A stretch of DNA of 64,000 nucleotides from Longimicrobiales bacterium (GTDB lineage: Bacteria; Gemmatimonadota; Gemmatimonadetes; Longimicrobiales; Gaopeijiaceae): assembly GCA_963664435.2 (NCBI GenBank), contig CAXXKM010000001.1:160001-224000 (forward strand), given 5' to 3'. How positions within the stretch are numbered: the first letter of the stretch is position 1; every line of letters begins with the position of its first letter. Under the pieces are notes generated by a model, which worked only from the letters and a program-made list of their open reading frames with translations, was not told where the DNA came from and ran no database searches. A program made the position numbers and the translations under genes. Positions 20,791 through 38,049 of this stretch are shown in pieces.

Positions 20791-21816
20791 TCAGTCGCTG
20801 GTGCGGGTGCGCTTCGAGGAGTCGATGGACGCCCGATTCTCCCGCAGCAACTCCTCGGCCCCCTCCGGCAGGAACAGCTTGTCCGAGATGTCCGCGATCT
20901 CTTCAGCCTCCTCCCAGGCCTTCTCGAGCAACCAGAGTTCACCCTCCAGGGCGCGTCGCTCCTGCTCTTCGTGGAGCGCCATTTCGAGGGCGAGCTTGTG
21001 CGGCCTGGGCATCTTGTTGATGTAGCCCGGAACGCCCTTCTTGTCCTCGAAGCGCTGTCCCTCCGCGATCCGGACCAGGAATCGCTCCGGATGCCCGGTG
21101 GTTTCGATGAGGTCGACGGCGTTTCCGACCGTGTCCCTGCTCCCGCCCATGCGGTTCATCCTGGGAAGGATCGCCCCTGCGAACCGGCGCGCTTCGACTC
21201 CCTCGAACCAGGTCTTCGTCTTTTTCCTGCGCACCTGAAGCCTGAAGCCCTGCGCGTCATCCGACGGACGCACGCGAGTGCCAAGGAGGTCCTGCTGGTT
21301 GAGCTTCAGAACGCCCCCTTCGGCGGGGTTGAGCTTCACGAGGGTTCGCCGGCTGTTCCAGATGTTGAACCAGTTCGGAATCTGACTGATCACGCCTGCG
21401 CTCAGGCCCGCGGCAACTCCGCCGACCACGATCCCGCCCACCACCGCAATGCCGGCCGCCCCGAACAGGAGAGCCCGCCGCCGCCGCCGCCCGAACTGAT
21501 CCCCGTACCGCCACGCCGCGAACTCGGGACGCATGGGCTGGCCGATGCGCACCAGGGTGAGTCCCTCCGGATGGCGCGCAAGGCCGATGTTGTCGGTGGA
21601 GACGCGGATGCGGGTGCCGCGGAAGAGGCGCTCGCAGTCCTCGACCGCTTCCCAGCGTTCCTCAAGCGGCGTGAGGTTCCAGCGCTCGCATTTCGTGCAC
21701 ACGACCCAGAGGCGGCCCCGGGCGGCGTCGAAGGCCAGCCTCCGCCCGACGGGGAACGACTCCACCACCCCGTTGGTTCCCAGCGGCTTCCGGCAGAACA
21801 TGCACGATGTGTACAC
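20791..21816 (-). CDS. Hypothetical protein with N-terminal Zn-ribbon and one TM segment
   Basis: CMFC...CTKC pair, central hydrophobic segment, acidic C-terminal helix. Confidence 0.78.
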   Translation of the reverse strand: MYTSCMFCRKPLGTNGVVESFPVGRRLAFDAARGRLWVVCTKCERWNLTPLEERWEAVEDCERLFRGTRIRVSTDNIGLARHPEGLTLVRIGQPMRPEFAAWRYGDQFGRRRRRALLFGAAGIAVVGGIVVGGVAAGLSAGVISQIPNWFNIWNSRRTLVKLNPAEGGVLKLNQQDLLGTRVRPSDDAQGFRLQVRRKKTKTWFEGVEARRFAGAILPRMNRMGGSRDTVGNAVDLIETTGHPERFLVRIAEGQRFEDKKGVPGYINKMPRPHKLALEMALHEEQERRALEGELWLLEKAWEEAEEIADISDKLFLPEGAEELLRENRASIDSSKRTRTSD

Positions 21817-22085: not shown

Positions 22086-22215
22086 TTTCGGAGGGTGATT
22101 CAACGTCCCGCCGTTGACGATCGGCGCTGTTACTACGCTGCGGTCTCCGATCGCCAGCCGGCTGGTCTCGCCGCCCCTCTCCAACGCCAGACGGATTGAG
22201 ACGGAGGAAACACAC

Positions 22216-23409
22216 ATGGGTCAGGAAACCACGGCACTCATCACCGATCCGATGGGGGTATTCGGCTTCCTGGCCGCCCTCGTGGCGCTGGTCTTCTGGG
22301 TCTCGGAACTGCCCCGCTTCCGCAAGGTGTTCGAGGTCGTCCCGCCGGTCATCTACGTCTACTTCCTGCCCATGCTGGCGACGACCGCCGGGATCACCCC
22401 CGCCGAATCCCCGCTCTACGGCTGGACGGTGCCCTACCTGCTCCTCTTCGCACTCCTGATGCTGATGGTCTCGGTGGACCTGGGGAGCGTCGTCAAGCTG
22501 GGGGGCACGGCGCTCTTCATGGTGGCGGCCGGCACCGTGGGGATCATCATCGGGGGCCCGATTTCGCTCCTGATCTTCGGGGACATGCTGCCACCCGACG
22601 CGTGGACCGGCTTCGCGGCGCTCTCCGGCAGCTGGATCGGGGGAACCGCCAACATGGTGGCCATCGCCGAAAGCGTCGGCACGTCGCCCGACGCCATGGG
22701 GCCGGCGATCGTGGTCGACACCGTGGTCGGATACGGATGGATGGGCGTGCTGATCGCGATGGTCGGGCTGCAGGGGCGTTTCGACCGGCGCACCCGGGCG
22801 CGCACCGAGGCGATCGAGGAGACCAACCGCCGCCTGGAGGCCATCAACCGGGAACGCCGCCCGATGTCGATGCGCGACGCGGTCATCATGATCGGGTTCG
22901 GGATGGCGTGCGCGGTGGGCGCCCGGCAGGTCGGCGCGATGCTCCCGGCCGTCGGTGATCCCACCATCATCAGCGGCACCACCTGGGCCATCCTGATCGT
23001 CGTGACCGGCGGACTGATCCTGTCCTTCACCCGGCTGAGGGAACTGGAGAGCGTAGGGGCGTCACACCTGGGCTACACGGCGCTCTACCTGCTGCTGGCC
23101 GGGATTGGGGCCCAGGCCGACCTGAGGGCCGTGCTCCAGACTCCTGTCTACCTCGCGGCGGGAGCCGTGTGGATCGCGATCCACCTGGCGGTGCTGCTGA
23201 TCGCCGCCCGCATCGTGCGCGCGCCCCTGTTCTTCGTGGCCACCGGGAGCATGGCCAACGTCGGCGGGGCGGCGTCCGCGCCGGTGGTCGCGGGGGTGTA
23301 CCACCGGGCGATGGCCCCGATCGGGCTGCTCATGGCCGTGGCGGGCTACATCCTGGGCATCTACGGGGCGCTCGCGTGTGCGTGGCTGCTGGGTCAGGTG
23401 GGAGGATGA
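22216..23409 (+). CDS. DUF819 family membrane protein
   Basis: LSGSWIGGTANMVAI, GSMANVGGAASAPVVA; many TM segments; GGAGG RBS before ATG 22216. Confidence 0.88.
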   Translation: MGQETTALITDPMGVFGFLAALVALVFWVSELPRFRKVFEVVPPVIYVYFLPMLATTAGITPAESPLYGWTVPYLLLFALLMLMVSVDLGSVVKLGGTALFMVAAGTVGIIIGGPISLLIFGDMLPPDAWTGFAALSGSWIGGTANMVAIAESVGTSPDAMGPAIVVDTVVGYGWMGVLIAMVGLQGRFDRRTRARTEAIEETNRRLEAINRERRPMSMRDAVIMIGFGMACAVGARQVGAMLPAVGDPTIISGTTWAILIVVTGGLILSFTRLRELESVGASHLGYTALYLLLAGIGAQADLRAVLQTPVYLAAGAVWIAIHLAVLLIAARIVRAPLFFVATGSMANVGGAASAPVVAGVYHRAMAPIGLLMAVAGYILGIYGALACAWLLGQVGG

Positions 23410-24071
23410 CTCGGGCACCGATGTGCCTGCTCCTGCTCGCCGCCGCCTGCTCCCCTGCCCCGGCCGACCCCGACCCCGCGCTCGTCGAGGCGATCGACTG
23501 GTACACGGGGGTGGCGGGAAGCGTCGACGACGCCCGTGCCCACGAACTGCTCGAACAGGCGGTCGACCGCGGGGGCCCGCTCGAGCTGATGTGGCTGGCG
23601 CGCGTCCACTCCACCGGCCGGATGGGGTTCCCCCGCGACGAGGATCGGGCGCGCGGGATCGCCGCGGAGGTCATCGAGGAAGTGGAGCGCGCGGCCGAGG
23701 CGGGCGTGCTGGAGGCCGTCTTCCTGATGGGCACCGCCTACGACGAGGGGCTGGGCAAGCCGGTCGATCCCGGGCAGGCCGCGGTCTGGCACCGCCGGGC
23801 CGCCGAGCGGCGGCATGTGCTCGGGGCCCACAACCTGGGGAATCAGTACGCTGCCGGACGGGGGGTGGAGGAGGACCCCGCCCTGGCGGCGGAATGGTGG
23901 CTGCGGGCCGCCGAACGGGGGGACGCCATCACCCAGCTCCGGCTCGGCGAGGCCTACGAGTCAGGCCGGGGTGTACCCCTCGACCTGGATCGGGCGCGGG
24001 AGTGGTACGGCCGCGCGGCCGCGGCGGGAAACGCGCAGGCGCGGGAGGCGCTGGAGCGGCTGGAGGGGTAG
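23406..24071 (+). CDS. Sel1-repeat (SLR) lipoprotein
   Basis: Repeated LG..Y..G.GV..D...A..W...AA..G...A units; lipobox AAAC; ATGA overlap with the upstream gene. Confidence 0.9.
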   Translation: MTRAPMCLLLLAAACSPAPADPDPALVEAIDWYTGVAGSVDDARAHELLEQAVDRGGPLELMWLARVHSTGRMGFPRDEDRARGIAAEVIEEVERAAEAGVLEAVFLMGTAYDEGLGKPVDPGQAAVWHRRAAERRHVLGAHNLGNQYAAGRGVEEDPALAAEWWLRAAERGDAITQLRLGEAYESGRGVPLDLDRAREWYGRAAAAGNAQAREALERLEG

Positions 24072-24089
24072 GGGTCTCGACTCAGCCTG

Positions 24090-24130
24090 ATTGACAAAAT
24101 AACGACTCTGTCGTCATTTTACCCGTCAAT
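24090..24130 (+). promoter_or_regulatory. TTGACA promoter element inside an imperfect palindrome directly before the ATPase ATG
   Basis: ATTGAC-AAAATAACGAC-TCT-GTCGTCATTTT-ACCC-GTCAAT, then ATG at 24131. Confidence 0.6.
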
Positions 24131-25294
24131 ATGACGACTCTAGCGCGATTTTTCACGGTTCCGCGCGGCAGCTTCTTCCTCTTCGGCCCGCGCGGGACGG
24201 GCAAGACCACCTGGTTGCGCGAAGCACTCCCGGACGCACTCTTGGTGGACCTGCTCCGTGCGGAGGAATATCGACGGCTTGCCGCTCGCCCGGAGCGGTT
24301 GCGTGAGTTGGTCCGCGCCGTTCCACCCGGCGGAGATATCGTGGTGGACGAGATCCAGCGCGTCCCCGAGCTGCTCAACGTGGTGCACGAACTTATGGCG
24401 ATGAGGTCCGGCCACCGCTTCGTGCTGACGGGATCCAGCGCCCGGACGCTGCGTCGCGGTGGGGTCAACCTCCTGGCGGGCCGCGCGATCGTACGCACGA
24501 TGCACCCCTTCATGGCCGGGGAGCTGGGGTCCGCGTTCGACCTTGCGACGGCCCTCACGCTGGGAACCGTCCCGACCGTCCTCTCGTCCGAAGATCCCGC
24601 GTCCGCGCTGACCGCCTACGCGTCCCTCTACGTCGAGCAGGAAGTTCGCGCCGAGGGCTTGGTTCGGGACGTGGGCAGCTTCTCGCGGTCCCTCGAAGCC
24701 GCTGCATTCTCCCACGCCGCGACGCTGAACGTGAGCGAAATCGCCCGCGAATGCGAGACGAGCCGGTCCACCGTCTCCGGCTACCTCGAGTTGCTCGAGG
24801 ATCTCCTGCTGGCATTCCGCCTTCCGGTCTTCACACGGAGGGCCAAGCGGCGCCTCGTGGCACATCCCCGCTTCTTCTACTTCGACTGCGGCGTATTCAG
24901 GAACCTGCGTCCCTCGGGACCTCTCGACCGGCCCGAAGAGATCGCGGGTCCGGCGCTCGAGGGGCTGGTCGCGCAGCATCTGCGCGCGTGGCTGGCCTAC
25001 TCCGAAACGGACGGAAGGCTGTACTACTGGCGCACCCGGACGGGCGCCGAGGTCGATTTCGTCCTCTACGGGACCCTCGGCATCTGGGGCATCGACGTCA
25101 TGAACGCCGCACGCATCCGTCCTGCCGATCTCCGGGGACTCGGGGCCTTCGGTGACGAGTATCCCGAAGCCCGCCGGATCCTGCTCTACCGTGGCGAGCA
25201 TCGGCTGGTTCGGAATGGCGTGCTCTGCCTTCCCGTCGATGCGTTTCTGGCCGGACTTGGTCCGTCGAGCGCATTGGAGGACATGGTCGGATAG
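24131..25294 (+). CDS. AAA_14 ATPase with C-terminal DUF4143 domain
   Basis: GPRGTGKTT, VDEIQRVP, LTGSSAR, LAGRA, PRFFYFDCGV, YYWRT..GAEVDFV. Confidence 0.9.
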   Translation: MTTLARFFTVPRGSFFLFGPRGTGKTTWLREALPDALLVDLLRAEEYRRLAARPERLRELVRAVPPGGDIVVDEIQRVPELLNVVHELMAMRSGHRFVLTGSSARTLRRGGVNLLAGRAIVRTMHPFMAGELGSAFDLATALTLGTVPTVLSSEDPASALTAYASLYVEQEVRAEGLVRDVGSFSRSLEAAAFSHAATLNVSEIARECETSRSTVSGYLELLEDLLLAFRLPVFTRRAKRRLVAHPRFFYFDCGVFRNLRPSGPLDRPEEIAGPALEGLVAQHLRAWLAYSETDGRLYYWRTRTGAEVDFVLYGTLGIWGIDVMNAARIRPADLRGLGAFGDEYPEARRILLYRGEHRLVRNGVLCLPVDAFLAGLGPSSALEDMVG

Positions 25295-25345
25295 CCGTCC
25301 GTGCCGGCTCGCCACCGGTACTCCGGCTGTCCCGCGCCCAGGCAA

Positions 25346-25762
25346 TCAGCGCAGGTCCCGGGGCCAGATCGCCGGCTGGCCCTTCAGCTTGACGGCTCCG
25401 AAGTCGCGCAGATCCAGCGTTGCGATCGCCTGCGCTTCCAACCGCTCCGCTACCGCCATGACGACGCCGTCGACCAGCCCGAACGAGAGGCTACGATGGG
25501 CGCGGTCGAGCTCCAGCGCCCTCCGCACATCGGACCAGCCACCCCATTCGACGGCGAAGCAGCCTTCCTCCAGGTCGGCGTGGAATGCCCTGTGCACGGC
25601 GGGGCCGACCGTGCGGGGAATCATGTAGTCCAACTCGGGGAGGATCGCCCACGGCAATACCCACTGGTCCCGGCAGGCACGGAACGCCTCCGCCAACGCC
25701 CCGTGGGAACGACTCCCCCGATCGAGAAGTCCCAGCAGCGCACTTGTGTCGGCCACGATCAC
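25346..25762 (-). CDS. vapC: PIN-domain toxin (VapC)
   Basis: IVADTSAL, ILPELDY, LVDGVVMAVAERL, IATLD.RDF give the PIN acidic residues; GTGA overlap with the antitoxin. Confidence 0.9.
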   Translation of the reverse strand: MIVADTSALLGLLDRGSRSHGALAEAFRACRDQWVLPWAILPELDYMIPRTVGPAVHRAFHADLEEGCFAVEWGGWSDVRRALELDRAHRSLSFGLVDGVVMAVAERLEAQAIATLDLRDFGAVKLKGQPAIWPRDLR

Positions 25763-26073
25763 GGGGCCGGATCCCCGGGCTCAGGGTGCGGGCGGTGCTC
25801 GGCGGCCGGTGCCGTGCCACGGTCCTCGGCGTCTGTAAGACCCTCTGCGCCGAAGCCGTCCAACATGTCCTCGTACCTCTCGGCCAGGTCGGCGACGCCG
25901 CTGTCTCCCATGCCGATGGACCGTGGCCATCGACGCTCGGTTGCGCGAGCCGCATACTCGGCCACCGCCTCGCGAACCAGCTCCGCCGCCGAACGCTTCT
26001 GGTCGGCCGCCAGCGACTTGAGCGTGCGGTAGTCGGCCGCATCCAGGTACACGGTGGTCTTGATCGTCTTCAT
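25759..26073 (-). CDS. vapB: CopG/ribbon-helix-helix antitoxin (VapB)
   Basis: From ATG 26073: MKTIKTTVYLDAADYRTLKSLAADQKRSAAELVREAVAEY..PRSIGMGDSG; directly upstream of the PIN gene. Confidence 0.88.
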   Translation of the reverse strand: MKTIKTTVYLDAADYRTLKSLAADQKRSAAELVREAVAEYAARATERRWPRSIGMGDSGVADLAERYEDMLDGFGAEGLTDAEDRGTAPAAEHRPHPEPGDPAP

Positions 26074-26076
26074 GGG

Positions 26077-26104
26077 GTATGGTATATGGTAACCATATGT
26101 ATGG
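26077..26104 (-). promoter_or_regulatory. Putative vapBC operator (palindrome plus CCATA repeats)
   Basis: ATATGG-TAA-CCATAT inverted repeat at 26084-26098 flanked by GTATGG repeats, 10 nt before the vapB ATG. Confidence 0.6.
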
Positions 26105-26117
26105 CAACTACGGCAGC

Positions 26118-29100
26118 CTATTCCAGCAAACCAGCCAGCGCCGAAGCTCCCTCCAGGCCCGCGTCGGAGCGTGCAAGTTCCTGCCGCTGCGCGCGGGAGA
26201 GCCAAGTCACCTGGCTGCCCGTCGCACCTCGCGTGACGGCGAGCACGTCGTCGATCTGTTCCGCGACGGCGGCAACATGAGAGATCACGCCCACCATCCG
26301 ACCTTTGCCCGCGACCAGCGAGAGAGCCTCGATGGCCGAGTCGAGGTTGCTGCGGTCCAGCGATCCGAAGCCCTCGTCCAGGAAGAGCGACTCCAGGCGG
26401 CCGCCGCTCCGGGCCATCATCTCCACCATGCCGAGCGCGAGCGCAAGCGACCCGATGAACTGTTCCCCGCCCGAGAGGCTGGCAGGTGAGCGCGCCTGCC
26501 CCGAGTCGTTGTCGACGACCAGCCACTGCTGGTCCGCCAGGTCGCCCGGGTCGGCGAAGGCGTAGCGGCCCGCCGTCATCTCCTCCAGCATCCTGGACGC
26601 GTACACCAGCAGGTCGCGCGAACGCCGCAGCGTGAGCCACTTGAGGAATGCACCCGGCTTGAGCGCGGCGTCGAGGTCGCCCAGAGCGAGCTCAAGTGCG
26701 GCGACCTCGTTGGCGGTCTGGCGGAGTTTCAGGAGGTCGTCGAGGATCGCGGCGAAGGCGTCCAGAGCCTCCTTCGCGGTCCGGGCGTTGAAGTCTGCTT
26801 CGGTAGCAGCCCTTCCGGTGAATTGGACCAGGGCGTCGAGGTCGGTCGGGTCGGCGGAAGGGTCGAGTTGCTCGGCGATCTTTCGGGCCTCGCTTTGGGC
26901 CTCTTCGACGGCAGCGAGAGCGCGCCGGCGCTGGTCCGCGGCCAGCGCCACCGCCTCGGCCATCGCTTCGCGGAGGTGGCCGATCCCCTCCCGTAGCGAC
27001 TCCGCGTCCACCGGGTAGTAGATGGCCGCGGGGACCGAGATGTCAGCAGCCAAGTCGCGAACAGCGTCCGCCAGAGCGGTTCGGTGGTCGGCCAGTGCCC
27101 GCACCAGGGCCTGTAGAGGTTCCTCGACCTCGGTTTTGCGGGTTTCCTCGAGACCTCGGAGCTCGGTTCTGGTCTCTTCGATCTTGGTGCCAAGGCGTTT
27201 CCGGTTCCGCTCGCGCTGCTGAAGGATCTTCTCGCGCTCCCCGGCGGCGTAGGAGGCGCGGTCGACAGGTGTGATATCGACCGTCTCCAGTTCCACGGGG
27301 TCGGACGGAAAAACCAGTCGGGGGCGGTATGGCGGGACGATGGATTGGATGCTCCGGTTCAGGGCGCCGAGAGCTTCGCCAGCCGTGTCCCGGATGCTGT
27401 CGAGGTTGCTCCGTGCGTGCACGTGTGTCTGCCTGGCCGAGGCCTCTGCGATCCGCGCATTTGTCTGCGTTTCGCCCAGCCTGTGGGCCTCGGTGCTGTG
27501 CTCGCTCAGCTTCGCATCGGCTTCTTCCAGTTGCCGCTGAACCGGGGCAAGGACCTGTTCCCGGTCCGGCAACGCCGCGTCCACTGAGAGCGAGGGGGCG
27601 TCGTCCAGCCCGGCGGCGGTGAGAAGTTGGTTAAGGGCGCCAGAATACTTGGACCGGAGATCACCTAATTCTTTCCTGATATCCCCTATCCGCTGCTGGC
27701 CGGATTCCTGCTTCGTCTCGAGATTGGTCACGATTCCGCTCGCCTCTTCGGTCTGCGACCTCGCCGCCTCCCGCGCCTCGCGCGCCGCATCCAGACCGGT
27801 GTCCTGTGGCGGCGTCCAACCCTGGGGGAGGTCGCTTTGGCAAACGGGACATTCGTCGCCCGGACAGAGATCGTGGGCGGCGGCCGCGGCGGCGTTGGTG
27901 CGCTGCGCCTCGCTTAGTTCCCGTTCGGCTCGTCGCAGGCGCTCTCGCGCCTCCTGGAGATCACGCCGCGCGCTGTCCAACCGTGTGATGACCTCGTCCA
28001 CTCCCTGCTCCTGCCCGGCCAACGCCTCCTCCGTCGAGCGCCTGCGATCTCGAAGGTCGCTGCACTTCTCATACTGGCGCTCGGCCGTCACCAGGAGTTC
28101 ACGGGCGGAGCGGCAGGCTTGGACGAAGGGCGGCTCCAGTGCCTGGTGCTCCGTCACCCGATCCGTGGCCGATGTGAGGGCTCGCTGCGCATTGGCATGT
28201 GCCCGCTCCGCCTCGGCCTCGTCGGCGATCGCCTCACGCAGCGTCGCGGCCGCACTGACAGCATTGAGCACCTGCGCCGGAATCGCGTCCAGCGCGTCCA
28301 GCGTGCGTGCGATCTCGTGATGGTCGGGGCCGTCGTCCGTAGGAATCCCGTTCAGCTCTCGCTTCAAGCTGGCCTTTTGGCCCTCCAGTTCCGTCGTCTC
28401 GGCTTCTATCCGGCGCTGCTCGATCTCCACCGGAGCAAGCTGATCCGTCAGTTTGTCCATCGCTGCCGGGATCACGCTCTCGCTCGCTTTCCCGGCCGCT
28501 GCGATCGTCTCCTCGGAGGTGCGGAGGGTATCCCGGGCCTGCGTAGATCGGTCCCGGAGGCCGGCCAAGGCACCCGCCTTAAGGCTCGCCGCCTCGGCCT
28601 TGGAGGTCAGATCGGCCAAGTGCTCCTCGGGGTCATCCGGATGCCGTTGCACCTCATCCTGCAGCCGAAGTCCCAGCATTCCGACCTCGCCCAGCCGCCG
28701 CCCGGCCACCTCACCCGCCGCCTCCAGGTCCTGGGTGCGCCAGACCTGGCGCAGGATCTCGGTGCGCGCGGACGGTGCGTCTTCGACCAGAAGACGGGCG
28801 AAGCGGCCCTGCGGCAGGATCACGGTGCGGAGGAAGGCGTCGCTGTCGAGTCCGATCAACGCCTGAACACGGTTGTTGACCGGCTTGACCTTCTCGACCT
28901 TCTCCAGCGTCTCGCCGTCTGGCCCGTAGCGAACGAGCTGCGCCCGGGGAGGGCCAAGCCCCCCTGCCCCCGTGCGCCGGTCCACCCTTGTGACTTCCCA
29001 CTCTCCGCCAGCCACCCGGAAGCGCAGCACGACGCGCATGACGTCCGACGTGTCGTTCATCAACTCCTGTTTGGACCGCCCCCCGAGCGAGGTCTGTCCG

Positions 29101-29249
29101 TACAGGGCGTAAGTCATCGCCTCGAGGATCGAGGACTTCCCGGCGCCGGTGTCGCCGATCACGGCGATCTGGGTGCGGTCGCCGAAGTCGATGCCGACCT
29201 CGGCCCGGAAGGAACGCAGTCCCTCGATGGTGATTCGAAGCGGGCGCAT
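26118..29249 (-). CDS. sbcC: SbcC/Rad50 family SMC-like ATPase
   Basis: Walker A GDTGAGKS, Q-loop LPQGRF, central zinc hook CPVC between coiled coils, LSGGE, LFLDEGFGSLD, ISH. Confidence 0.95.
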   Translation of the reverse strand: MRPLRITIEGLRSFRAEVGIDFGDRTQIAVIGDTGAGKSSILEAMTYALYGQTSLGGRSKQELMNDTSDVMRVVLRFRVAGGEWEVTRVDRRTGAGGLGPPRAQLVRYGPDGETLEKVEKVKPVNNRVQALIGLDSDAFLRTVILPQGRFARLLVEDAPSARTEILRQVWRTQDLEAAGEVAGRRLGEVGMLGLRLQDEVQRHPDDPEEHLADLTSKAEAASLKAGALAGLRDRSTQARDTLRTSEETIAAAGKASESVIPAAMDKLTDQLAPVEIEQRRIEAETTELEGQKASLKRELNGIPTDDGPDHHEIARTLDALDAIPAQVLNAVSAAATLREAIADEAEAERAHANAQRALTSATDRVTEHQALEPPFVQACRSARELLVTAERQYEKCSDLRDRRRSTEEALAGQEQGVDEVITRLDSARRDLQEARERLRRAERELSEAQRTNAAAAAAHDLCPGDECPVCQSDLPQGWTPPQDTGLDAAREAREAARSQTEEASGIVTNLETKQESGQQRIGDIRKELGDLRSKYSGALNQLLTAAGLDDAPSLSVDAALPDREQVLAPVQRQLEEADAKLSEHSTEAHRLGETQTNARIAEASARQTHVHARSNLDSIRDTAGEALGALNRSIQSIVPPYRPRLVFPSDPVELETVDITPVDRASYAAGEREKILQQRERNRKRLGTKIEETRTELRGLEETRKTEVEEPLQALVRALADHRTALADAVRDLAADISVPAAIYYPVDAESLREGIGHLREAMAEAVALAADQRRRALAAVEEAQSEARKIAEQLDPSADPTDLDALVQFTGRAATEADFNARTAKEALDAFAAILDDLLKLRQTANEVAALELALGDLDAALKPGAFLKWLTLRRSRDLLVYASRMLEEMTAGRYAFADPGDLADQQWLVVDNDSGQARSPASLSGGEQFIGSLALALGMVEMMARSGGRLESLFLDEGFGSLDRSNLDSAIEALSLVAGKGRMVGVISHVAAVAEQIDDVLAVTRGATGSQVTWLSRAQRQELARSDAGLEGASALAGLLE

Positions 29250-29253
29250 CCGG

Positions 29254-30561
29254 TCAGTCGTCCCCTTGGCGGCCGGGTTCGCTCGTGTGCGACCTGCCGC
29301 GGTTCCCGGCTACACCGCTTCCGGATCCCCCACGCAGCGCGGCCATGACTCCCTCCGCACGCATTGTGAGTTCGGTTAACCCGAAGTCCGGCCCCTTCTC
29401 GTCCCCCGACCCGGCGACGGCTTCGCGAAAGAGCGCCAGCACCGTGTCCCGGGGCGCCTTCTTGGCCCTGCTCGTCGCCGCCGTGCACCGCCACTCGACG
29501 AAGAAAGCTTCCATGGAGGGCTCGTCACCGTCCTCCGTCCCTGAGATCGGCTTGACGGGCCGGTTGGCCACTTCGTTCACCAGGTTGAAGATCACGCACT
29601 CGGGCGACCACTCGGCCACCTGGTCCGCCAGTTCGGGGATCGGATCGTCGGACTTGACCACAGCTTTGAGGAAACAGCTGTCCAACGCCCCGTTCGCCGC
29701 CCGCGCCTCCAGTTCCTGGAACGACCCGGTGAAGCTCCGCAGCGGCCGCCCCGGGGGCAGTTCCCGTTCGCCGATCCGAACGTCGTCGCCGATCGTGACC
29801 ACGACCGCGTGCTTGCTCTGGCCACTCTCGCCGTAGTCCAGCGGGATGAGCGACCCCGCGTACCGGCCACGTGCGCTTCCCGGAAGCTGCTGCGGGTCGT
29901 GGATGTGCCCGAAGGCGCAGTAGAGCGCGCGGTGCAGCCCCCTCGTGTGGGTGGCGTGGTCCCTGCCGACGGTGAACCGCCGCTCGGAGTTGCCGGGCCG
30001 CGCCCCGTCGACGTGCAGGTGCGCCGCATAGAGGACGATGCCTTGCTGGCCCGCAACGTCGCGCGCGCGCCCGACCACGTGATCGTTGAGGTTGCGGATG
30101 CCGTCGGCGTAGTCGCCCTCGAAGCGGGAGGCGTCGCCGGTGGCGTAGTCGGTGATCGCACCGGGGGGAATGAAGGGGACGCACGCGAGCGCGACGGGGA
30201 CCTCTGCGAGATCGTCGAACTCCAGGACGCGCGGCGAGGTGACGAACCAGAGGCGGCGGGGCGAGGCCATGCCCGCCATGTCGTCCAGTACATTAAACAG
30301 GGCGGTCGAGTCGTGGTTGCCGCTGATCACGACGGTCGGTGCGATCCTCGCCAGCCGCTGCAGGGCCGTGACCCCGAGCCGCAGCGCCGGGTAGGGAGGT
30401 CGGTAGGCGTCGAAGAGGTCGCCTGCGTGAATGATCAGGTCGGGCTGCTCGGAGGCGGCCACGTCCAGGAGCGCACGCAGCGCCGCTTGGTGGTCCTGCA
30501 TCCGGTCGTGGCGTCCCAGCTTCGCGCCGAGATGCCAGTCTGCTGTGTGAAGCAGCTTCAC
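29254..30561 (-). CDS. sbcD: SbcD/Mre11 metallophosphoesterase nuclease
   Basis: LLHTADWHLG, AGDLFD, SGNHD, AHLH, FGHIH.PQ, YAGS...DYGE. Confidence 0.95.
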   Translation of the reverse strand: MKLLHTADWHLGAKLGRHDRMQDHQAALRALLDVAASEQPDLIIHAGDLFDAYRPPYPALRLGVTALQRLARIAPTVVISGNHDSTALFNVLDDMAGMASPRRLWFVTSPRVLEFDDLAEVPVALACVPFIPPGAITDYATGDASRFEGDYADGIRNLNDHVVGRARDVAGQQGIVLYAAHLHVDGARPGNSERRFTVGRDHATHTRGLHRALYCAFGHIHDPQQLPGSARGRYAGSLIPLDYGESGQSKHAVVVTIGDDVRIGERELPPGRPLRSFTGSFQELEARAANGALDSCFLKAVVKSDDPIPELADQVAEWSPECVIFNLVNEVANRPVKPISGTEDGDEPSMEAFFVEWRCTAATSRAKKAPRDTVLALFREAVAGSGDEKGPDFGLTELTMRAEGVMAALRGGSGSGVAGNRGRSHTSEPGRQGDD

Positions 30562-30569
30562 GGCGCGTC

Positions 30570-32408
30570 CTATAACTCCAGCTTCGGGCCCGACATGGCG
30601 GTCAGGTTGGAAAAGATCTCTTCCGTCCGCTCCCGGTCACGCGCCTCGTCGACTTCGGCCTCGTCCGGGTTGGTGGCGTAAGGTGGGAAGGGAAAGCGCA
30701 GGGGGATCGGCTCGGGCACGATCGGCTGGGACAGCACCATGGTCCCGGGCATGAAGCGCGACGCGCGCTCCCGAAGCGCGGAAGACAGGAAGCGGTAGGC
30801 ATCGGCCTCGTTCGCGTCGAGGCGCCCCGCCACCTTGAGCGACGCGTTGCGGGGGAGGGCCGGAGCGACTGCCGACGCAGCCTGCTGCGCGCCCACGAGG
30901 AGTACGCCCAAGGAACGTCCACGCTCGGCGATGTCGACCAGCAGCTCCCGCAGCGGTGAGTAACCCTTCGCGGGAGCGTACTTGTTGAGTTCGTCCAGGA
31001 CGACGAAGCGCAACGGAACACGTCCCGTCCCCTGCTTCTCGCTCCATACGCCGTCCAGCAGCGAGCCGACCACGAAGCGCTGCGCGTCGTCGTGCAGGGT
31101 GGAGATGTCGACCACGTGCACGCGCGCATTCTCGGACGACACCGGCGTGAGACCGCAACCGACCAATGGACCGATGTGCTTGCGCAGCCGCAGCAACCGG
31201 CGCAGGTAGGCCTGGCGGGTGCCCGACTGAGTGCGCCCGAACCAGGATCTGAGAATCTCGTCGTCGTCCCGGTTGGCCATCCTCTCGGTGAAATCGACGA
31301 ATCCCCCGAAATCCTCGATCACGTGGCCGGCACCCGCGCGCACTGAATCGGGCTCCTTCGCCGCGAGCCGGTCCGGGTCGAAGCTCGTGTCCTCAGGGAC
31401 GGTCGGGAGGATGACCACCGCGCCCGACTCCCCGCCCTCCAGACGGCGGAGGTGGCGTAGCAGCTGGATGCGGAACTGCTGCTCGATGAAGCCGACCTGG
31501 GTCGAGCGGTCGTCTTCGGAGGTGAAGCAGAACTGGAGCAGCTGGTCGCGGATGAACTGTTCCGGAGTCCATCCATAAGCGTGCACATCGCTGGTGTCGC
31601 GCGACTTGACCCCGGGCACGGTCCCCGAGACACCGGGCGGCCGCGGAGCGTAGAGGCGCACCGAGCGGAAGGGGCCGGGATCGCTGACGCCCAGGGCGTG
31701 CCACTGAGCACGGGCGTTCGGCCTGCCCGGGAACTCAGAGTTCGGGCGATCGAGGTGGAGCAGGTCCTCGCCCTTGGTATTGAAGACGAGCGCGCGCACG
31801 TTCTCGCGTTCGGCGCGGCCTCCAAGCAGCTCCATTCCGCCTTTCGTTTCCAGAAGCTGATAGAGGATGTACAGCGCGTACGAAGTCTTGGTCGCGACGC
31901 CCGAGATCCCCGAGATGGAGAAGTGTCCTCCTGAGCGCCCATCGACGAAGCGCATGTCTGCGTAGACGGGCTCGCCTCCCATGTCCACGCCGACCGGGAG
32001 CTTGCCGCGCTTCATCTCGTCCTCGAACAGGGCGATCGTGCGGTCCGAGCCCACCGCGCGCATGGCCACGGAACCCGCGTTCGGCGCTACGAAGAGTTCG
32101 GGGACGACGCGCAGGACCCTCACCTCTGCCAGACGCACGTGCTCAGCGGGCATGACGCGATCGACGACCCGCGCCGTATCGGAAGGCAGCTCGGCACCTT
32201 CGAAGCGGCTGCGCAACTCGGTCACGATCCCGTAGTGGGTGACCTGCGTCCCGTCCGGCAGTTTGTTGCGGACGGCGACCAGCTGGTCCAATTGCACATT
32301 CGCTTCCGGGTCGAGCACCACGTGAAACTCGCGCGAATTGCTGCCGTGCGAGCCGTCCACCAGCCCGATTCGGGGGTCCGGCGCGGTGTTTCCGTCCTGG
32401 TCGCTCAC
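30570..32408 (-). CDS. herA: HerA helicase/translocase (HAS barrel + FtsK/HerA ATPase)
   Basis: N-terminal barrel (YGIVTELRSRFEG), variant Walker A SGISGVATKTS, FNTKGEDL, Walker B FVVLDELNKYAP, AERGRSLG, GAQQ. GTG start overlaps the nurA stop; GGAGG RBS. Confidence 0.9.
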   Translation of the reverse strand: MSDQDGNTAPDPRIGLVDGSHGSNSREFHVVLDPEANVQLDQLVAVRNKLPDGTQVTHYGIVTELRSRFEGAELPSDTARVVDRVMPAEHVRLAEVRVLRVVPELFVAPNAGSVAMRAVGSDRTIALFEDEMKRGKLPVGVDMGGEPVYADMRFVDGRSGGHFSISGISGVATKTSYALYILYQLLETKGGMELLGGRAERENVRALVFNTKGEDLLHLDRPNSEFPGRPNARAQWHALGVSDPGPFRSVRLYAPRPPGVSGTVPGVKSRDTSDVHAYGWTPEQFIRDQLLQFCFTSEDDRSTQVGFIEQQFRIQLLRHLRRLEGGESGAVVILPTVPEDTSFDPDRLAAKEPDSVRAGAGHVIEDFGGFVDFTERMANRDDDEILRSWFGRTQSGTRQAYLRRLLRLRKHIGPLVGCGLTPVSSENARVHVVDISTLHDDAQRFVVGSLLDGVWSEKQGTGRVPLRFVVLDELNKYAPAKGYSPLRELLVDIAERGRSLGVLLVGAQQAASAVAPALPRNASLKVAGRLDANEADAYRFLSSALRERASRFMPGTMVLSQPIVPEPIPLRFPFPPYATNPDEAEVDEARDRERTEEIFSNLTAMSGPKLEL

Positions 32409-33390
32409 GTGGCCTCCTCTTCCCGGTTGTGCTGCATGACGGCTTCTCGAACGGCACGTAGCGCGAGCCTCGAGTCGCCGAGCAGGTGGTGAAGATGCTG
32501 TTCCAGCCGCGCGACCGGTGCAAGGTTGACCGGCGCCCGGGCATCCCGGTGGGGCGCCGACGCGAAGGCGGGAAGCCACCGCGCGGCGCGATCCACCGTG
32601 GCGATGGCCCTGCCGCTGCCCGAACTGACGGGTACCTCCAGGCGCGCGATCCCCGCCCACGGCCCCGCCCAGGGACCGGAGTCGCCCACACGGATGTAGC
32701 ACGCATAGCGTTCGCCCTTCATGGCGAAAAGACTCGTCCGTTCTCCCACGTCGAGGTTCGGCACGGTCTGCCAGTGCTCGACCGCGAGCGTGCGCCGGTG
32801 GTGGGTCTTGACGTATCCGACCACGGGAGTTCTGCGGCTGCGGCGGATGCTGTGAAGCGGTCCGTCGAATACGACCGTCAAGCCTTCCTCGAACAGGCGA
32901 TCGGCGATCGCGGCTTCGGTGTCCCTCATCAGGCGCTGGAGATGTTGCGCCGCCGCGTGGGGCTCCTCACTCTCGACCGAAAGAGACATCCAGCGCCAGC
33001 CCCCGGCGTGCGGGAGCAGGCGCACCTGCTGTCCGCCGGGGAAGATGACAGCGCGACCGATCTCCACGTGGCCGATTTCGGCCGGGCCGTCCGGGCCGAT
33101 CAGTACCGCACCCGCTCCCCACGCCCCCACGAGCCCCGCGATCGTCTCCCCGTCCGACTTCGTGCGCGTAAGGTGAGCTTCGGTTCGACGCACCCCGTCG
33201 ACGAAGCACAGACGTACCGGGGAGCCCCCGTCGGGGGGACGGTGAATTCGAAAGTGTCCCCCGTCTTCCACCACCCGGCACTCGACGGTGTGTTCATCCT
33301 CTTCGTCCGCGCGAAAGCCGGCGCCGTAGGACGCATCGAATGGCTCGACCCCGATAAAGGACCGAGACGGCGTACGGTTCATGGCCCCCA

Positions 33391-33391
<1 letters not shown>
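32405..33391 (-). CDS. nurA: NurA-family nuclease (RNase H-like fold)
   Basis: CFVDGVRR, VVFDGPL, GYVKTH, RAPVNLAPVARLEQHLHHLLGD. ATG overlaps the aroF TGA (TGATG); directly upstream of herA. Confidence 0.82.
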
Positions 33392-34440
<1,049 letters not shown>

Positions 34441-34545
34441 GTCCGATCTCGTGGATGAAAGGTGGCTGCGAAATCCGCAGGGCTGGGTGAAGTGTGGCTG
34501 AGGCGGGTGGCCGGATCGGAAGTTCGATTGCGGAGACGGCGCGGC

Positions 34546-37500
34546 TTACGCAGACGCACCCGCCTCGAGGCGAACCCCTACCACCGAGCTCACGCCCGGT
34601 TCCTCCATGGTCAGGCCGTAGATCCAGTCGGCCGCTTCGATGGTGCGCGGATTGTGCGTGATCACCACGAACTGGCTCTGCTGCTTGAACTCTCGCAGAA
34701 GCTGAACGAAGCGGTCAATGTTGCTCTCGTCAAGCGGGGCGTCCACTTCGTCCAGGACGCAGAACGGGCTCGGCTTCACAAGGTAGATGCCGAAGAGGAG
34801 CGCGAGCGCGGTGAGCGCCCTTTCTCCCCCCGACAGCAGATCGATGCGCCGGGTCTTCTTGCCCATCGGGGCGGCGTGGATGTCGACGGGCCCTCCCAGC
34901 GGATCCTCGGGGTCGCCCAGACGCAGGTCGCACTCTCCGCCGTCGAACAGGCGCTGGTAGATGTTGCGGAAGTTCTCGCGCGCGGTCTCGAAGGTCTCGA
35001 GGAAGAGCCTGGTGGCGGTCTGGTCGATCTCGCGGATGGCGGCCCGCAGGTCGTTGCGCGCCCGCTCGAGGTCGTCGCGCTGCCCGGTCAGGAAGGTCAG
35101 GCGCTCATTCTGTTCCGCATGTTCCTCGATGGCGAGCATGTTGACGGGACCCAGGCGTTCGATCGCCTGCACGAGCCCGCCCAGCTCCTCCTTGAGCTCC
35201 TCGGGGTCGCCCTCGACCGGCTCCGCCATCTCGACCAGCTTCTCGAAGGATCGCGCCCATTCCGCCTCCACGCGTTCGCGGATGAGGACGATCTTCCCGC
35301 CGAGTTCCTGCTCCTCGAGGTTCAGGTCGTGATGTCGGTCGGAGGCGGCCCGCTCGGCCGAGCGGGCGGCTTCGACCCTCCGGTCGGCCTGCTTTACCGC
35401 CTCCTTCGCCTGCCCGAGCGCCGCGTCGTCCTGTGCGAGCCGCTCCTGAGCGCGGTCACGCCGCTGGAACAGCCGCTCGACGGCCTTCCCCCCGCGCGTG
35501 AGCAGCGCGCGGGCTTCGGACAGCTCGCGCCCGAGCTGCTCTTTCTCCTTCTCCAGCCGCGCGAGCTGCGCGGAGGCCTGCGTTTCCGACCTGCCGAGAT
35601 CGCCCAGACGCTCGTCGGCGCGCGCGAGTTCGCCCTCGTGCTGATTCGACTGGATCGCGAACCGGGCTTCGTCCACGCGCGCGCGCTCCCAGTCCCCCTC
35701 CGCCACCTCGAGCACCTCGGCGGCCCGTTCTCCACGACGGCGCAGGGAGGCGGCACCCGCGGTCAGGCTGTCGAGTTCCTCCTGCTGCGCGCGCTCCTGC
35801 CCGGTCGCGGTGGCGATGGCCTCCCGGATGTCGCGGACGCGCCGCGCGAGGTCGTCGCTGTCCCGTGTCAGACGGGTGCGGCGCTCCTCGTGGGTGCTCC
35901 GGTCCGCCCGGGCGGCGCGCAGGTCGTCGTCGGCGCGGGTCAGCGCCGCGCGCCGCTCCTGGAGCACCCTCTCCGCCCGCTCGACGCGCCCCTGCGCCGC
36001 CTCGCGCGCCCCACGGGCGCGCGAGGCTTTCCGGGCAGCGGCGACGGCGGCCTCCTCGAGGGCCGCGAGCTTGCCGCGGCGTTCGAGAAGGCCGGCCGTC
36101 CCCGCGGGGTTGCCCACCACCACCACGCCGCGCGCGTCCACGGACGCGGGCGGGCGGTCACGGCCGGGCGCCTCGTCCCCGCCGGTGGAGTCCCCGGGCT
36201 CGTCGCGGTCCACCCCGGCCAGAAGTATGCGTGCCCAGGAGGCGCCCGGCCCTTCCGGGCGGAGTTCGCTCAGCAGCGACCCCGCTGGACCCGCCTCGGT
36301 GGCCTCGTCCAGCGGGAGCAGCACGATCCCTCCACCCTCGGTCCACTCCTCGGCGAACCACCTGCGCAGGCGTGCGGCGGCCTCGCCGCCCTCCACCAGC
36401 AGCGCCTGAGCCAGATGGCCCAGATACGACTCCGCGGCGCTCAGCGCGCCCGCCGGGCCTGCAATGCACTGCGACAGCGTGCCGAGAACCAGATCCGGAT
36501 GCGCCTCGCGGGCCGCCCGCACGACCGGCTCGTAGCCGGCTCCATCCCGCTCCATGATCTCGAGGGCGGTCCGCCGGGCCTCTAGCGCTGACGCCCGGTC
36601 AGCCGCCTTCACTTCGGCTGCGCGCGCCCGCGCCTGCGCAGTGCGTGCGTCCTCGAAGTCCCGCAGCCCCTCGTCCACCTTCGTGCGGGCCCGCGTCGCG
36701 GAGGCCTCGAGGCGGACCATCCGGTCGTCGGATTCCCCGCCCTCCCGGCGCATCCCGGTCAGCTCGAGCTCGGTCTGGGAGGCACGTTCCTCGAGCCGGA
36801 CCAGCCGACCATGCAACTCCTCAAGCCGCGTGCGCGAGGCGCCGACGGTGCCCTCCATGCCGGCCACCCGGCGCAGCAGTTTCCGTTCCTTGCCGCGCAC
36901 CTCCGCCAAGGTCGCGCGCGCGCGCCTCAGCCGTTCCCTCGTGCGCGCCGTAACCTGCCGCGCCTGTTGCGATTCCGCGCCCACTTCGGCCAGTTCGGCC
37001 GCGGTTCGGGCGCGCGACCTCCGCAACTCGGCCAGCTCGCGCGCCAACTCGCCGGAACGCCGACGAGCCACGTCCTGATCCTCGCCGATCTGCCCCAGTC
37101 GCCGCTCCGCGTAGACGATGCGCTCGCGCGCAACCGCCAGGTCCCGTTCCCAGCGCACCAGGTCCTTCTGGATGCTGTCGAGCACCCCCGCCGCCTCGGT
37201 GCGGGACTTCTCGGCCTCCAGGCTTCGCACCCGCGAGGCCTCGCGCTCGGTCTCGGCCGTCCGGAGCTCGATGAGCGTCGCCTGCTGCGCCTCCTGCTCG
37301 CGCGCGAGCAGCTCCCGAACCTTCGTCAGGCGATCCTCGAACTCGACGAGGTCCACCGACACCACCGCGACCTCGACCGAGAGCCGTCGCTTCCTCAGAC
37401 CGTGGTAGCGCTGTGCCTTCCCCTTCTGGCGCGCCAGCGAGCGGACCTTGGTCGCCACCTCCGCGATCACGTCCTCCAGCCGTTCCAGGTCCAGTTCGGC

Positions 37501-38049
37501 CCGGGCCAGCCGCTGTCCCGCGATCCGGCTCCGGTCCTTGTACTTGCCGATGCCCGCGGCCTCCTCGAACAACCCACGGCGCTCTCCCGCCCGCTCCGAG
37601 AGAATCGCGTCGATCATGCGGCTCTCGATGATCGCGTAGGCGTTGGCGCCGAGTCCGGTGTCCCGGCACAACTCCTGGACATCGCGCAGGCGACAGGTGG
37701 TGCGGTTGATCGAGTACTCGCTGCCGCCATCGCGGTACACCGTGCGGCCGATCTCGACTTCGCCGAAAGGCACCGGGAGCAGCCCGTCCTCGTTGGTGAC
37801 CCGGAGGATGACCGATCCGCGGTTGATGGGCCGCCGATGGACGGTTCCCTGGAAGATCACCTCTTCCATGCGTGAGCCGCGTACCACCGTGGGCCGCTGC
37901 TCGCCAAGCACCCAGCGAACGGCGTCGCTGATATTGGACTTGCCGCATCCGTTCGGGCCCACAATCGCGGTAATGCCCTCGTGGAACACGATGTCGGTGC
38001 GTTCGGGGAACGACTTGAACCCGTGCAGGCTCAGCGAGGCGAGCTTCAT
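34546..38049 (-). CDS. smc: Chromosome segregation protein SMC
   Basis: GFKSF, VGPNGCGKSN, FEEAAGI, hinge region, LGPVN..A.EE, LSGGE, PSPFCVLDEVDAPLD, ITHN. Confidence 0.96.
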   Translation of the reverse strand: MKLASLSLHGFKSFPERTDIVFHEGITAIVGPNGCGKSNISDAVRWVLGEQRPTVVRGSRMEEVIFQGTVHRRPINRGSVILRVTNEDGLLPVPFGEVEIGRTVYRDGGSEYSINRTTCRLRDVQELCRDTGLGANAYAIIESRMIDAILSERAGERRGLFEEAAGIGKYKDRSRIAGQRLARAELDLERLEDVIAEVATKVRSLARQKGKAQRYHGLRKRRLSVEVAVVSVDLVEFEDRLTKVRELLAREQEAQQATLIELRTAETEREASRVRSLEAEKSRTEAAGVLDSIQKDLVRWERDLAVARERIVYAERRLGQIGEDQDVARRRSGELARELAELRRSRARTAAELAEVGAESQQARQVTARTRERLRRARATLAEVRGKERKLLRRVAGMEGTVGASRTRLEELHGRLVRLEERASQTELELTGMRREGGESDDRMVRLEASATRARTKVDEGLRDFEDARTAQARARAAEVKAADRASALEARRTALEIMERDGAGYEPVVRAAREAHPDLVLGTLSQCIAGPAGALSAAESYLGHLAQALLVEGGEAAARLRRWFAEEWTEGGGIVLLPLDEATEAGPAGSLLSELRPEGPGASWARILLAGVDRDEPGDSTGGDEAPGRDRPPASVDARGVVVVGNPAGTAGLLERRGKLAALEEAAVAAARKASRARGAREAAQGRVERAERVLQERRAALTRADDDLRAARADRSTHEERRTRLTRDSDDLARRVRDIREAIATATGQERAQQEELDSLTAGAASLRRRGERAAEVLEVAEGDWERARVDEARFAIQSNQHEGELARADERLGDLGRSETQASAQLARLEKEKEQLGRELSEARALLTRGGKAVERLFQRRDRAQERLAQDDAALGQAKEAVKQADRRVEAARSAERAASDRHHDLNLEEQELGGKIVLIRERVEAEWARSFEKLVEMAEPVEGDPEELKEELGGLVQAIERLGPVNMLAIEEHAEQNERLTFLTGQRDDLERARNDLRAAIREIDQTATRLFLETFETARENFRNIYQRLFDGGECDLRLGDPEDPLGGPVDIHAAPMGKKTRRIDLLSGGERALTALALLFGIYLVKPSPFCVLDEVDAPLDESNIDRFVQLLREFKQQSQFVVITHNPRTIEAADWIYGLTMEEPGVSSVVGVRLEAGASA

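Follow-up and report, generated by a model that had tools for sequence, protein, structure and literature searches.

Links between HerA-type ATPases and the SbcCD genes have been noted in bacteria before. In Oceanithermus profundus, sbcD and sbcC lie downstream of hepA, as PMC5448004 remarks, and a 2026 review (PMC13748450) states that bacterial nurA is without stable synteny with these genes. Here we describe a chromosomal operon of the order nurA-herA-sbcD-sbcC (version A) in a Longimicrobiales genome of the Gemmatimonadota, on a stretch of 64,000 nucleotides (contig CAXXKM010000001.1, positions 160,001 to 224,000; hereafter, the window), together with a divergent counterpart of the order herA-sbcD-sbcC-nurA (version B) that holds the same site in relatives. 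The four-gene operon as such is ordinary, its layout being already published for Oceanithermus, and our data contradict PMC13748450 on the missing nurA synteny. What is new is the in-place replacement of a divergent resident operon at several slots and in two phyla, together with a motor devoid of pore residues shown elsewhere to be essential. Our literature searches, which left most subscription papers out of reach, found no paper on this operon in Gemmatimonadota or on its swap.

In-place exchange of two operon versions

We compared 19 genomes of the genus, the window genome (G000) and 18 congeners, all of which have a Deinococcus-type HerA. A preliminary description of the window, made from its letters alone, had raised the synteny of the block behind aroF in relatives and the possibility of a universal, vertically inherited block. 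Version A fills the slot between aroF and sel1 in G000, G013, G014 and G015 (4/19) and version B fills it instead in 15/19, with no genome carrying both (0/19); the visible flank is the upstream one alone in G013 and the downstream one alone in G015, a 67% complete genome with a split herA. Some version is therefore present at one slot in 19/19, but inheritance has not been vertical. In the 15 congeners with version B, whose gene order we take to be the archaeal one, the operon lies directly behind aroF and is followed by vapBC, an AAA_14 gene or sel1 where the contig extends; its HerA is 41–42% identical to that of the window, its SbcD 29–34% and its NurA 31–35%.

DNA similarity between the window and the B-carrying congeners ends at 33382-33391 and restarts at 26097-26108, so the exchanged block runs from the nurA start to the sbcC stop. 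In an RpoB tree of 52 genomes (FastTree; G015 has no rpoB), the six basal congeners all carry version B, G000 pairs with G014, and G013 pairs with the B-carrying G010. Because version B is basal in this tree, version A likely replaced B at the window's slot; the direction comes from the host tree, and no B stub was found upstream or downstream in the window. Site-specific attachment sites were looked for: the junctions lie within ~10–15 nt of start and stop codons, and inspection by eye, with no repeat finder, revealed no shared end sequence.

The same two versions alternate in a sister genus (n = 53), in which 35 genomes have A only, 13 have B only, two have both and three have neither. Exactly one version is thus present in 48/53 (Fisher p 6e-8, overstated given the non-independence of kin). 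In the first double carrier, version A sits on a 19-kb contig, probably a stray, and its nurA is identical to that of another genome; in the second, G073 (7% contamination), A and B share one 1.74-Mb contig. Two further slots are involved. At slot T (aminotransferase-TonB receptor ... sel1), version A occurs in 11 loci and version B in nine with the upstream flank visible. At slot P (SNF-glyS-SDR ... nfuA-pyrC), version A occurs in many loci and version B, inverted, in three; the slot is empty in 5/5 tested genomes having the operon elsewhere.

A profile of the first residues of herA-B found true herA-B stubs in 5/83 regions upstream of nurA-A. Four of them lie at slot T (L024, L031, L036 and L037; E 1e-4 to 1e-3). 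The fifth, in the Latescibacterota record L099, has E 1e-9 and spans 25 codons that share 60% identity with herA-B. At the DNA level, eight of ten slot-T regions align to the B upstream hairpin and past the herA-B start codon, and six of those eight continue for 10–20 codons at 69–82%; version A is inserted at the first codons of herA-B, with the B upstream region retained. Since herA-B stubs stand ahead of nurA-A, version A demonstrably displaced B in place at slot T and in the Latescibacterota genome, and the stubs are physical evidence of whole-operon in-place replacement between genera and phyla. No stub was found at slot P, and no nurA-B remnant in 61 downstream regions; profile matches in L041 were rejected as its own A genes. 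One locus, L107 (G035), may represent an intermediate: it is a mosaic in which an A-type nurA (62%) stands ahead of B-type herA-sbcD-sbcC. A lone herA-A 3' stub (L200) adjoins an AAA_14 gene in a B-carrying genome.

Against the sister genus, RpoB is 71–74% identical, with four-fold sites at 41–50%, which is saturated. HerA of the close A clade reaches 90–94% protein and 59–71% four-fold identity, and two deeper A copies (G079 and G087) 81–85% and 47–52%. That HerA is far more alike than RpoB, four-fold sites included, indicates that version A crossed genus lines recently, likely entering the genus from the sister genus. Between the window and its sister G014, four-fold identity is 80% for smc, 79% for aroF, 66% for herA, 64% for sbcC and 47% for nurA. 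Monophyly of the four A copies of the genus, in trees of 25–26 rows chosen from the close A clade, was rejected for nurA (approximately unbiased test, p 0.001) but not for herA (0.80), sbcD (0.18) or sbcC (0.37). The junction of G000 reads as a deletion of that of G013. The simplest reading is that version A came in once and that its alleles then traded single genes; several entries, among them four independent ones, are less likely.

Among the best 80 of 95 related A loci from GTDB genomes, record titles name Gemmatimonadota, Acidobacteria/Vicinamibacterales, Spirochaetia, Pseudomonadales and Latescibacterota (HerA 71–94%), and nurA, sbcD and sbcC follow order A in nearly all of them, as far as contigs extend. 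Versions A and B form separate supported clades inside bacterial HerA, and HerA is under purifying selection, its protein identity (91–94%) lying far above its four-fold-site identity (62–71%). One Vicinamibacterales genome has three A copies (L067, L068, L069), two of them shortened and beside transposase-like genes. Ahead of version A in L079, L085 and L096 there is likewise an SDR-family gene resembling the one beside slot P; in Vicinamibacterales and Pseudomonadales records this gene was possibly carried along with A.

More broadly, a related HerA is found in 211/301 genomes drawn from the phylum (a tally that includes one row for an unpublished genome, G256). In nine Gemmatimonadales-type loci examined, this HerA has sbcC alongside in 9/9, a detectable sbcD in 8/9 and nurA in 6/9. 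In a family sample, HerA is present in 9/9 and 17/19 genomes of the two exchanging genera versus 4/19 of the other sampled genera. Among mobile elements, a plasmid collection gave 4 positive records in 72,556, one of them an 11.9-Mb record, a phage collection gave one weak match in 50,697 phages, and a scan of IMG/VR, sensitive to close relatives only, gave no match. Carriage by plasmids or phages thus found little support, the genes being practically absent from both collections.

The operon, its proteins and its host

The features of the window that bear on the exchange are these, from upstream to downstream of the operon:

33391..38049, minus strand: native upstream flank, smc (34546-38049) and aroF (33391-34440); TIGR02168 and DAHP synthase above cut-off
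33382..33393, minus strand: upstream junction, where the native end of aroF meets version A; congener DNA similarity ends, contigs bridge
32405..33382, minus strand: nurA, bacterial (Deinococcus-type) nuclease, version A; Pfam NurA above cut-off, 7F6D NurA E 6.5e-17
30570..32408, minus strand: herA, Deinococcus-type HerA ATPase, version A, 612 aa; 7F6D HerA E 2.6e-104
29254..30561, minus strand: sbcD nuclease, 435 aa; TIGR00619 140 bits, cut-off 77.65
26118..29249, minus strand: sbcC ATPase with zinc hook CPVC, 1043 aa; Pfam AAA_23 and SbcC_Walker_B above cut-off, TIGR00618 below its own
26098..26118, minus strand: downstream junction, where the sbcC stop meets the native vapB promoter (-35 box at 26107); congener similarity resumes, contigs bridge
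25346-26030, minus strand: native downstream flank, vapBC (Pfam)
24131-25294, plus strand: native downstream flank, AAA_14/DUF4143 ATPase (Pfam)
23406-24071, plus strand: native downstream flank, sel1 (Pfam)
22114-23409, plus strand: native downstream flank, DUF819 (Pfam)

The operon comprises four minus-strand open reading frames (ORFs), nurA, herA, sbcD and sbcC in that order, at window 26118-33391, with a GTGA overlap of nurA and herA followed by gaps of 8 nt and 4 nt (ORF coordinates). This arrangement, and the catalytic motifs, agree in full with the preliminary description, which had placed the nurA frame at 32405-33391. The gene is nurA, with an open frame that begins at 33391 and a second ATG at 33382. 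The TGATG behind aroF is kept in congeners that lack nurA there (G001, G006, G011), and nurA of G013 opens with the same MNRTP, so the true start is probably 33382. Upstream, smc and aroF adjoin version B in congeners too and lie outside the swapped block, as does the downstream flank at 22114..26097, whose vapBC stands beside version B in 10/15 congeners. Contigs span both outer junctions in 3/3 runs examined, from two studies, with 0 differing letters (one run may be the source sample), which rules out an assembly chimera. GC content (0.67–0.69 in the operon genes, 0.66–0.74 across the window) gives no foreign signal. Genome-wide profile searches found one nurA, one above-cut-off sbcD and one such herA in the window genome.

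Several observations concern the slot and its surroundings. The vapBC cassette lies between sbcC and nurA in five B loci and after nurA in five others (L100, L105, L117, L120 and L125 among these loci); given these two positions, the cassette moves within the slot. In congener G015, a PDC-S11 candidate defence gene (E 2e-126; L122:5897-6856) lies between sbcD and sbcC. SbcC-B ranges from ~795 to 1131 aa, and at window 28100-28794 the coiled coil of sbcC is shorter by 693 nt (231 codons, in frame) in one contig of run X5. Two ORFs conserved in the genus have no Pfam match: one of 332 aa between rsfS and smc (window 38046-39044) and one of 341 aa with a Cys-rich motif at its start (window 20791-21816).

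NurA carries the motifs FVDG (63) and DGPL (176), scores 25.9 against the 21-bit Pfam cut-off, and aligns in a PDB sequence search with NurA of D. radiodurans (7F6D) at E 6.5e-17 as well as with Thermotoga TM1739, which upholds its earlier identification. Equivalents of the catalytic D53, K201 and R309 are all retained in the 7F6D alignment, set against PMC9960219; the numbering assumes a 20-residue offset in the PDB sequence, which is our own reading. HerA matches no Pfam or NCBIfam model. Its residues 13–585 align to D. radiodurans HerA (7F6D, E 2.6e-104, the sole PDB match at E 0.1), with homology along the full length, a HAS barrel, a GxSGVATKT P-loop (167–175), a Walker B DE (472–473) and RGR (496); K173/T174 and D472/E473 correspond to K175/T176 and D487/E488. 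A quick tree nests it among bacterial HerA, including Deinococcus proteins. SbcD (DWH 8, GD 47, GNHD 81, GHIH 218) scores above cut-off with TIGR00619 (140 bits) versus only 37–49 bits with Mre11 models, whose cut-offs are 500–600. SbcC has split ABC ATPase motifs, a coiled coil and a CxxC hook (Walker A 32, CPVC 467, LSGGE 925, Walker B 957); its best model is TIGR00618 (185 bits, E 1.5e-54, under its cut-off), with Rad50 models at 52–97 versus 700–1087. No archaeal HerA or NurA appeared among the PDB matches. An archaeal origin of the proteins was rejected, with SbcD and SbcC best on bacterial models and HerA and NurA Deinococcus-type. As judged from sequence, the operon is intact and joins a bacterial, Deinococcus-type NurA-HerA to SbcD-SbcC. 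The label 'archaeal-style' therefore applies to the gene set alone: the proteins are bacterial-type, and the order differs from the archaeal one.

The HerA motor differs at its pore. In D. radiodurans HerA, the pore arginines R495 and R552 are required for translocation, and mutating either one wholly abolishes 5' resection (PMC9960219). Numbered by the 7F6D alignment, with K175/T176 and D487/E488 in register, the window HerA has A480 at the R495 position, and R552 falls in a two-residue deletion after D536. Neither arginine occurs in any of 82 A sequences, whereas version B has R495 in 25/25 and R552 in 24/25; 118/118 scorable close homologues agree with A at the pore positions. Among 150 listed 50%-cluster representatives, R or K stands at 495 in 59/70 scorable, and a second-loop basic residue in 36/46 readable. 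Also absent from version A are the basic pair at 516-517 and the ERR patch found in B. The invariant basic residues particular to A number 24, four of them C-terminal (R520, R539, R551, R571), and A carries a 26-residue insert (~333–358) not present in version B. We infer that the A motor would grip DNA via other basic residues, through a rewired pore. Since the two versions at one slot differ at essential pore residues, comparing them side by side would be a convenient way to examine both function and the grip of a ring motor on DNA.

The window genome has a tandem gene pair encoding a PD-(D/E)XK protein (1124 aa) and an AddA-like protein (1152 aa; AddA and RecB models below cut-off), as well as RecJ (above cut-off), Ku and RecA; the AddA-like gene is present in 19/19 genomes of the genus. 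The operon as a substitute for missing RecBCD/AddAB was thus rejected, and the earlier proposal of a 'RecBCD/AddAB-independent resection machine' loses its premise. The nearest titled records by sequence are Longimicrobiales/Gemmatimonadetes bins, which, going by their isolate labels, are presumably marine-sponge bins.

No sigma-70-type promoter or terminator was found between aroF and nurA, where the gap to the likely start is 9 nt, and co-transcription with aroF is plausible from this spacing. A candidate repeat precedes lexA (twice), recA, a radical-SAM gene and nurA of G013:

G000:C3 ~343900 (lexA); window ~61020 (recA); G000:C1:626698; L121 ~12800: TTCG-N7-TTCG sites, direct repeat

This motif also stands ahead of many unrelated genes (25 upstream rows), in 0/30 B upstream regions and not ahead of the window's nurA; it is a candidate LexA box of the lineage, too degenerate to confirm. 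By eye, TGTCA-N11-TATGCT is conserved upstream of nurA in Vicinamibacterales loci (for example, L059, L067, L074, L084 and L094). It resembles what we take to be the actinobacterial PafBC (RecA-NDp) damage promoter.

Repair, defence or self-spread

We lean slightly towards reading the operon as a reserve machine for processing DNA ends that works alongside AddAB and RecJ, with version A having replaced a functionally equivalent version B. By analogy with its family, SbcCD would take hold of ends that are broken, blocked or folded into hairpins and open them up. On the model of D. radiodurans (PMC9960219), the HerA hexamer would thread the end into the NurA dimer, and NurA would trim it to a recombinogenic tail or clear the fragment. 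Our preferred guess is that A would have reached the B slot by illegitimate recombination anchored in homology, and that strains living together would then have passed it on by ordinary exchange driven by the flanks. That one version is kept in every genome of the genus, and exactly one in most of the sister genus, suggests that A and B are interchangeable and do the same job. The fixed slots, single copy, near-universal presence in both genera and near absence from mobile DNA fit repair, and deletion mutants of the closest studied homologues in Thermus and Deinococcus have recombination, repair and UV phenotypes (PMC5448004). Several points weigh on the other side. For ordinary repair genes one would expect neither a sweep across genera and five phyla nor the repeated displacement of a resident copy; such behaviour resembles the outcome of selection by a changing enemy. 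By alignment, version A has neither of the two arginines without which D. radiodurans loses 5' resection. PMC9960219 doubts the efficiency of D. radiodurans NurA-HerA as a resection enzyme in the living cell, and PMC12977600 makes the case that an archaeal HerA-NurA acts against viruses. Our literature searches found no experiment tying bacterial NurA-HerA to SbcCD, and no damage operator was found before the window's nurA.

A DNA-end-sensing defence module seems to us rather doubtful. In this view, SbcCD and HerA-NurA would break down the linear DNA of phages or of other incomers, and balancing selection would keep the two versions alternating at one fixed slot, since a phage inhibitor of the one would leave the other active. 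Such a module would account for the recent sweep across genera and phyla, the mutual exclusion with both versions persisting, the gene-by-gene discordance of trees and the altered pore residues, and an archaeal HerA-NurA cuts both strands (PMC12977600). Cargo between herA and sbcD, found in 13/71 A loci versus 0/24 B loci and including PDC-S01-like, Schlafen-like, GmrSD-like and ABC-ATPase genes, also speaks for it, but insertions are as frequent at housekeeping junctions used as controls (glyS-SNF 7/18, SDR-glyS 7/22). Other control junctions are low (nfuA-pyrC 1/21, smc-aroF 0/15, a third 1/11), and a defence-island signal at A loci does not clearly rise above the controls. Such symbiont genomes are rich in defence-type cargo genes (PMC8163846), and the window genome has 11 AAA_14-like matches. 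The window flanks consist of housekeeping genes, vapBC and one ATPase, all also beside version B, and a single-copy, fixed-slot operon, near-universal in the genus and rare on plasmids and phages, is not what defence would predict. A PADLOC search, proposed in the preliminary description, matched no described anti-phage system: with PADLOC 2.0, NurA and SbcD had no match, HerA matched mad8 (1.6e-12) and SbcC matched LmuB (2.2e-22), both weakly and through shared domains, and no model describes the gene set.

Two further explanations turn on spread itself. HerA-NurA might, like Thermus HepA, prepare DNA for donation or integration and so favour its own spread, hitch-hiking among dense symbionts; we consider this improbable. 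T. thermophilus hepA mutants are impaired in natural competence and DNA donation (PMC5448004), HerA is concentrated in the two exchanging genera, the runs that contain the window's allele hold other A alleles at far greater depth, and herA 3' ends are duplicated around cargo in L032 and L045. No transfer genes lie beside any copy examined (competence genes were not surveyed), Thermus has no linked sbcDC, and a donation role leaves the displacement of B unexplained. Nor do we give much credence to a neutral or selfish swap, in which A would be no better than B, cells with both would form poisoned mixed HerA rings or SbcC dimers, and only B-removing insertions would survive, the A motor being perhaps partly uncoupled from DNA. 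Such a swap would fit the rarity of A and B together (2/72 genomes of the two genera, one probably the stray contig), the insertion into the first codons of herA-B with its upstream region kept, and the absence of R495, R552 and the ERR patch from A. It sits poorly with G073, contaminated as that genome is, with the three A copies (two truncated) in one Vicinamibacterales genome, with an identity of 41% that may be too low for mixed rings, and with the 24 invariant basic residues and strong purifying selection of A.

A bolder view, which we hold unlikely, is that version A is a rewired NurA-HerA-SbcCD machine, its pore unlike the one studied, that sweeps co-resident symbionts of five phyla and ousts the resident operon in place, either because foreign linear DNA escaping B is restricted by A or because A actively excludes B; if true, this would be an allele-swapped 'repair' operon under conflict-type selection. 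Separately, we observed that a ~580-aa ABC-ATPase with weak AriA/OLD-like PADLOC matches overlaps the herA stop in L028, L032, L045 and L049, and that in L032 and L045 the duplicated herA 3' end lies beyond it, as after integration into herA.

Comparison with known systems

The closest studied system is D. radiodurans NurA-HerA (PDB 7F6D, 7WRW, 7WRX; PMC9960219), which has the same deviant P-loop, Walker B and NurA D/K/R residues. Here, in contrast, sbcD-sbcC is linked, the host has AddAB-like genes, R495 and R552 have no equivalents, and HerA has a 26-residue insert. The hepA-sbcD-sbcC cluster of Oceanithermus profundus likewise has bacterial sbcD and sbcC behind a HerA homologue; PMC5448004 mentions it in passing, with no allele swap, and we liken it by description, not sequence.

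The archaeal herA-mre11-rad50-nurA operon of Sulfolobus, Pyrococcus and Thermococcus unites the same four protein families. In our operon, by contrast, all four proteins are bacterial-type, with Mre11 and Rad50 models far under cut-off, and, given the AddAB-like genes, it is not the sole end-resection route. HerA anti-phage systems (Sir2-HerA, DUF4297-HerA) and the SMC-like Lamassu and Wadjet likewise combine a ring or SMC-like ATPase with a nuclease; this locus has no Sir2, DUF4297, LmuA or JetD partner, and only weak shared-domain PADLOC matches. Xenologous gene displacement in situ, in which a foreign homologue replaces the resident gene and the flanks stay unchanged, was reportedly described by Omelchenko et al. 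in 2003. The exchange reported here differs: the unit exchanged is an entire operon of 7.3 kb whose two versions differ in gene order, three slots and a second phylum are affected, and both versions are still in circulation.

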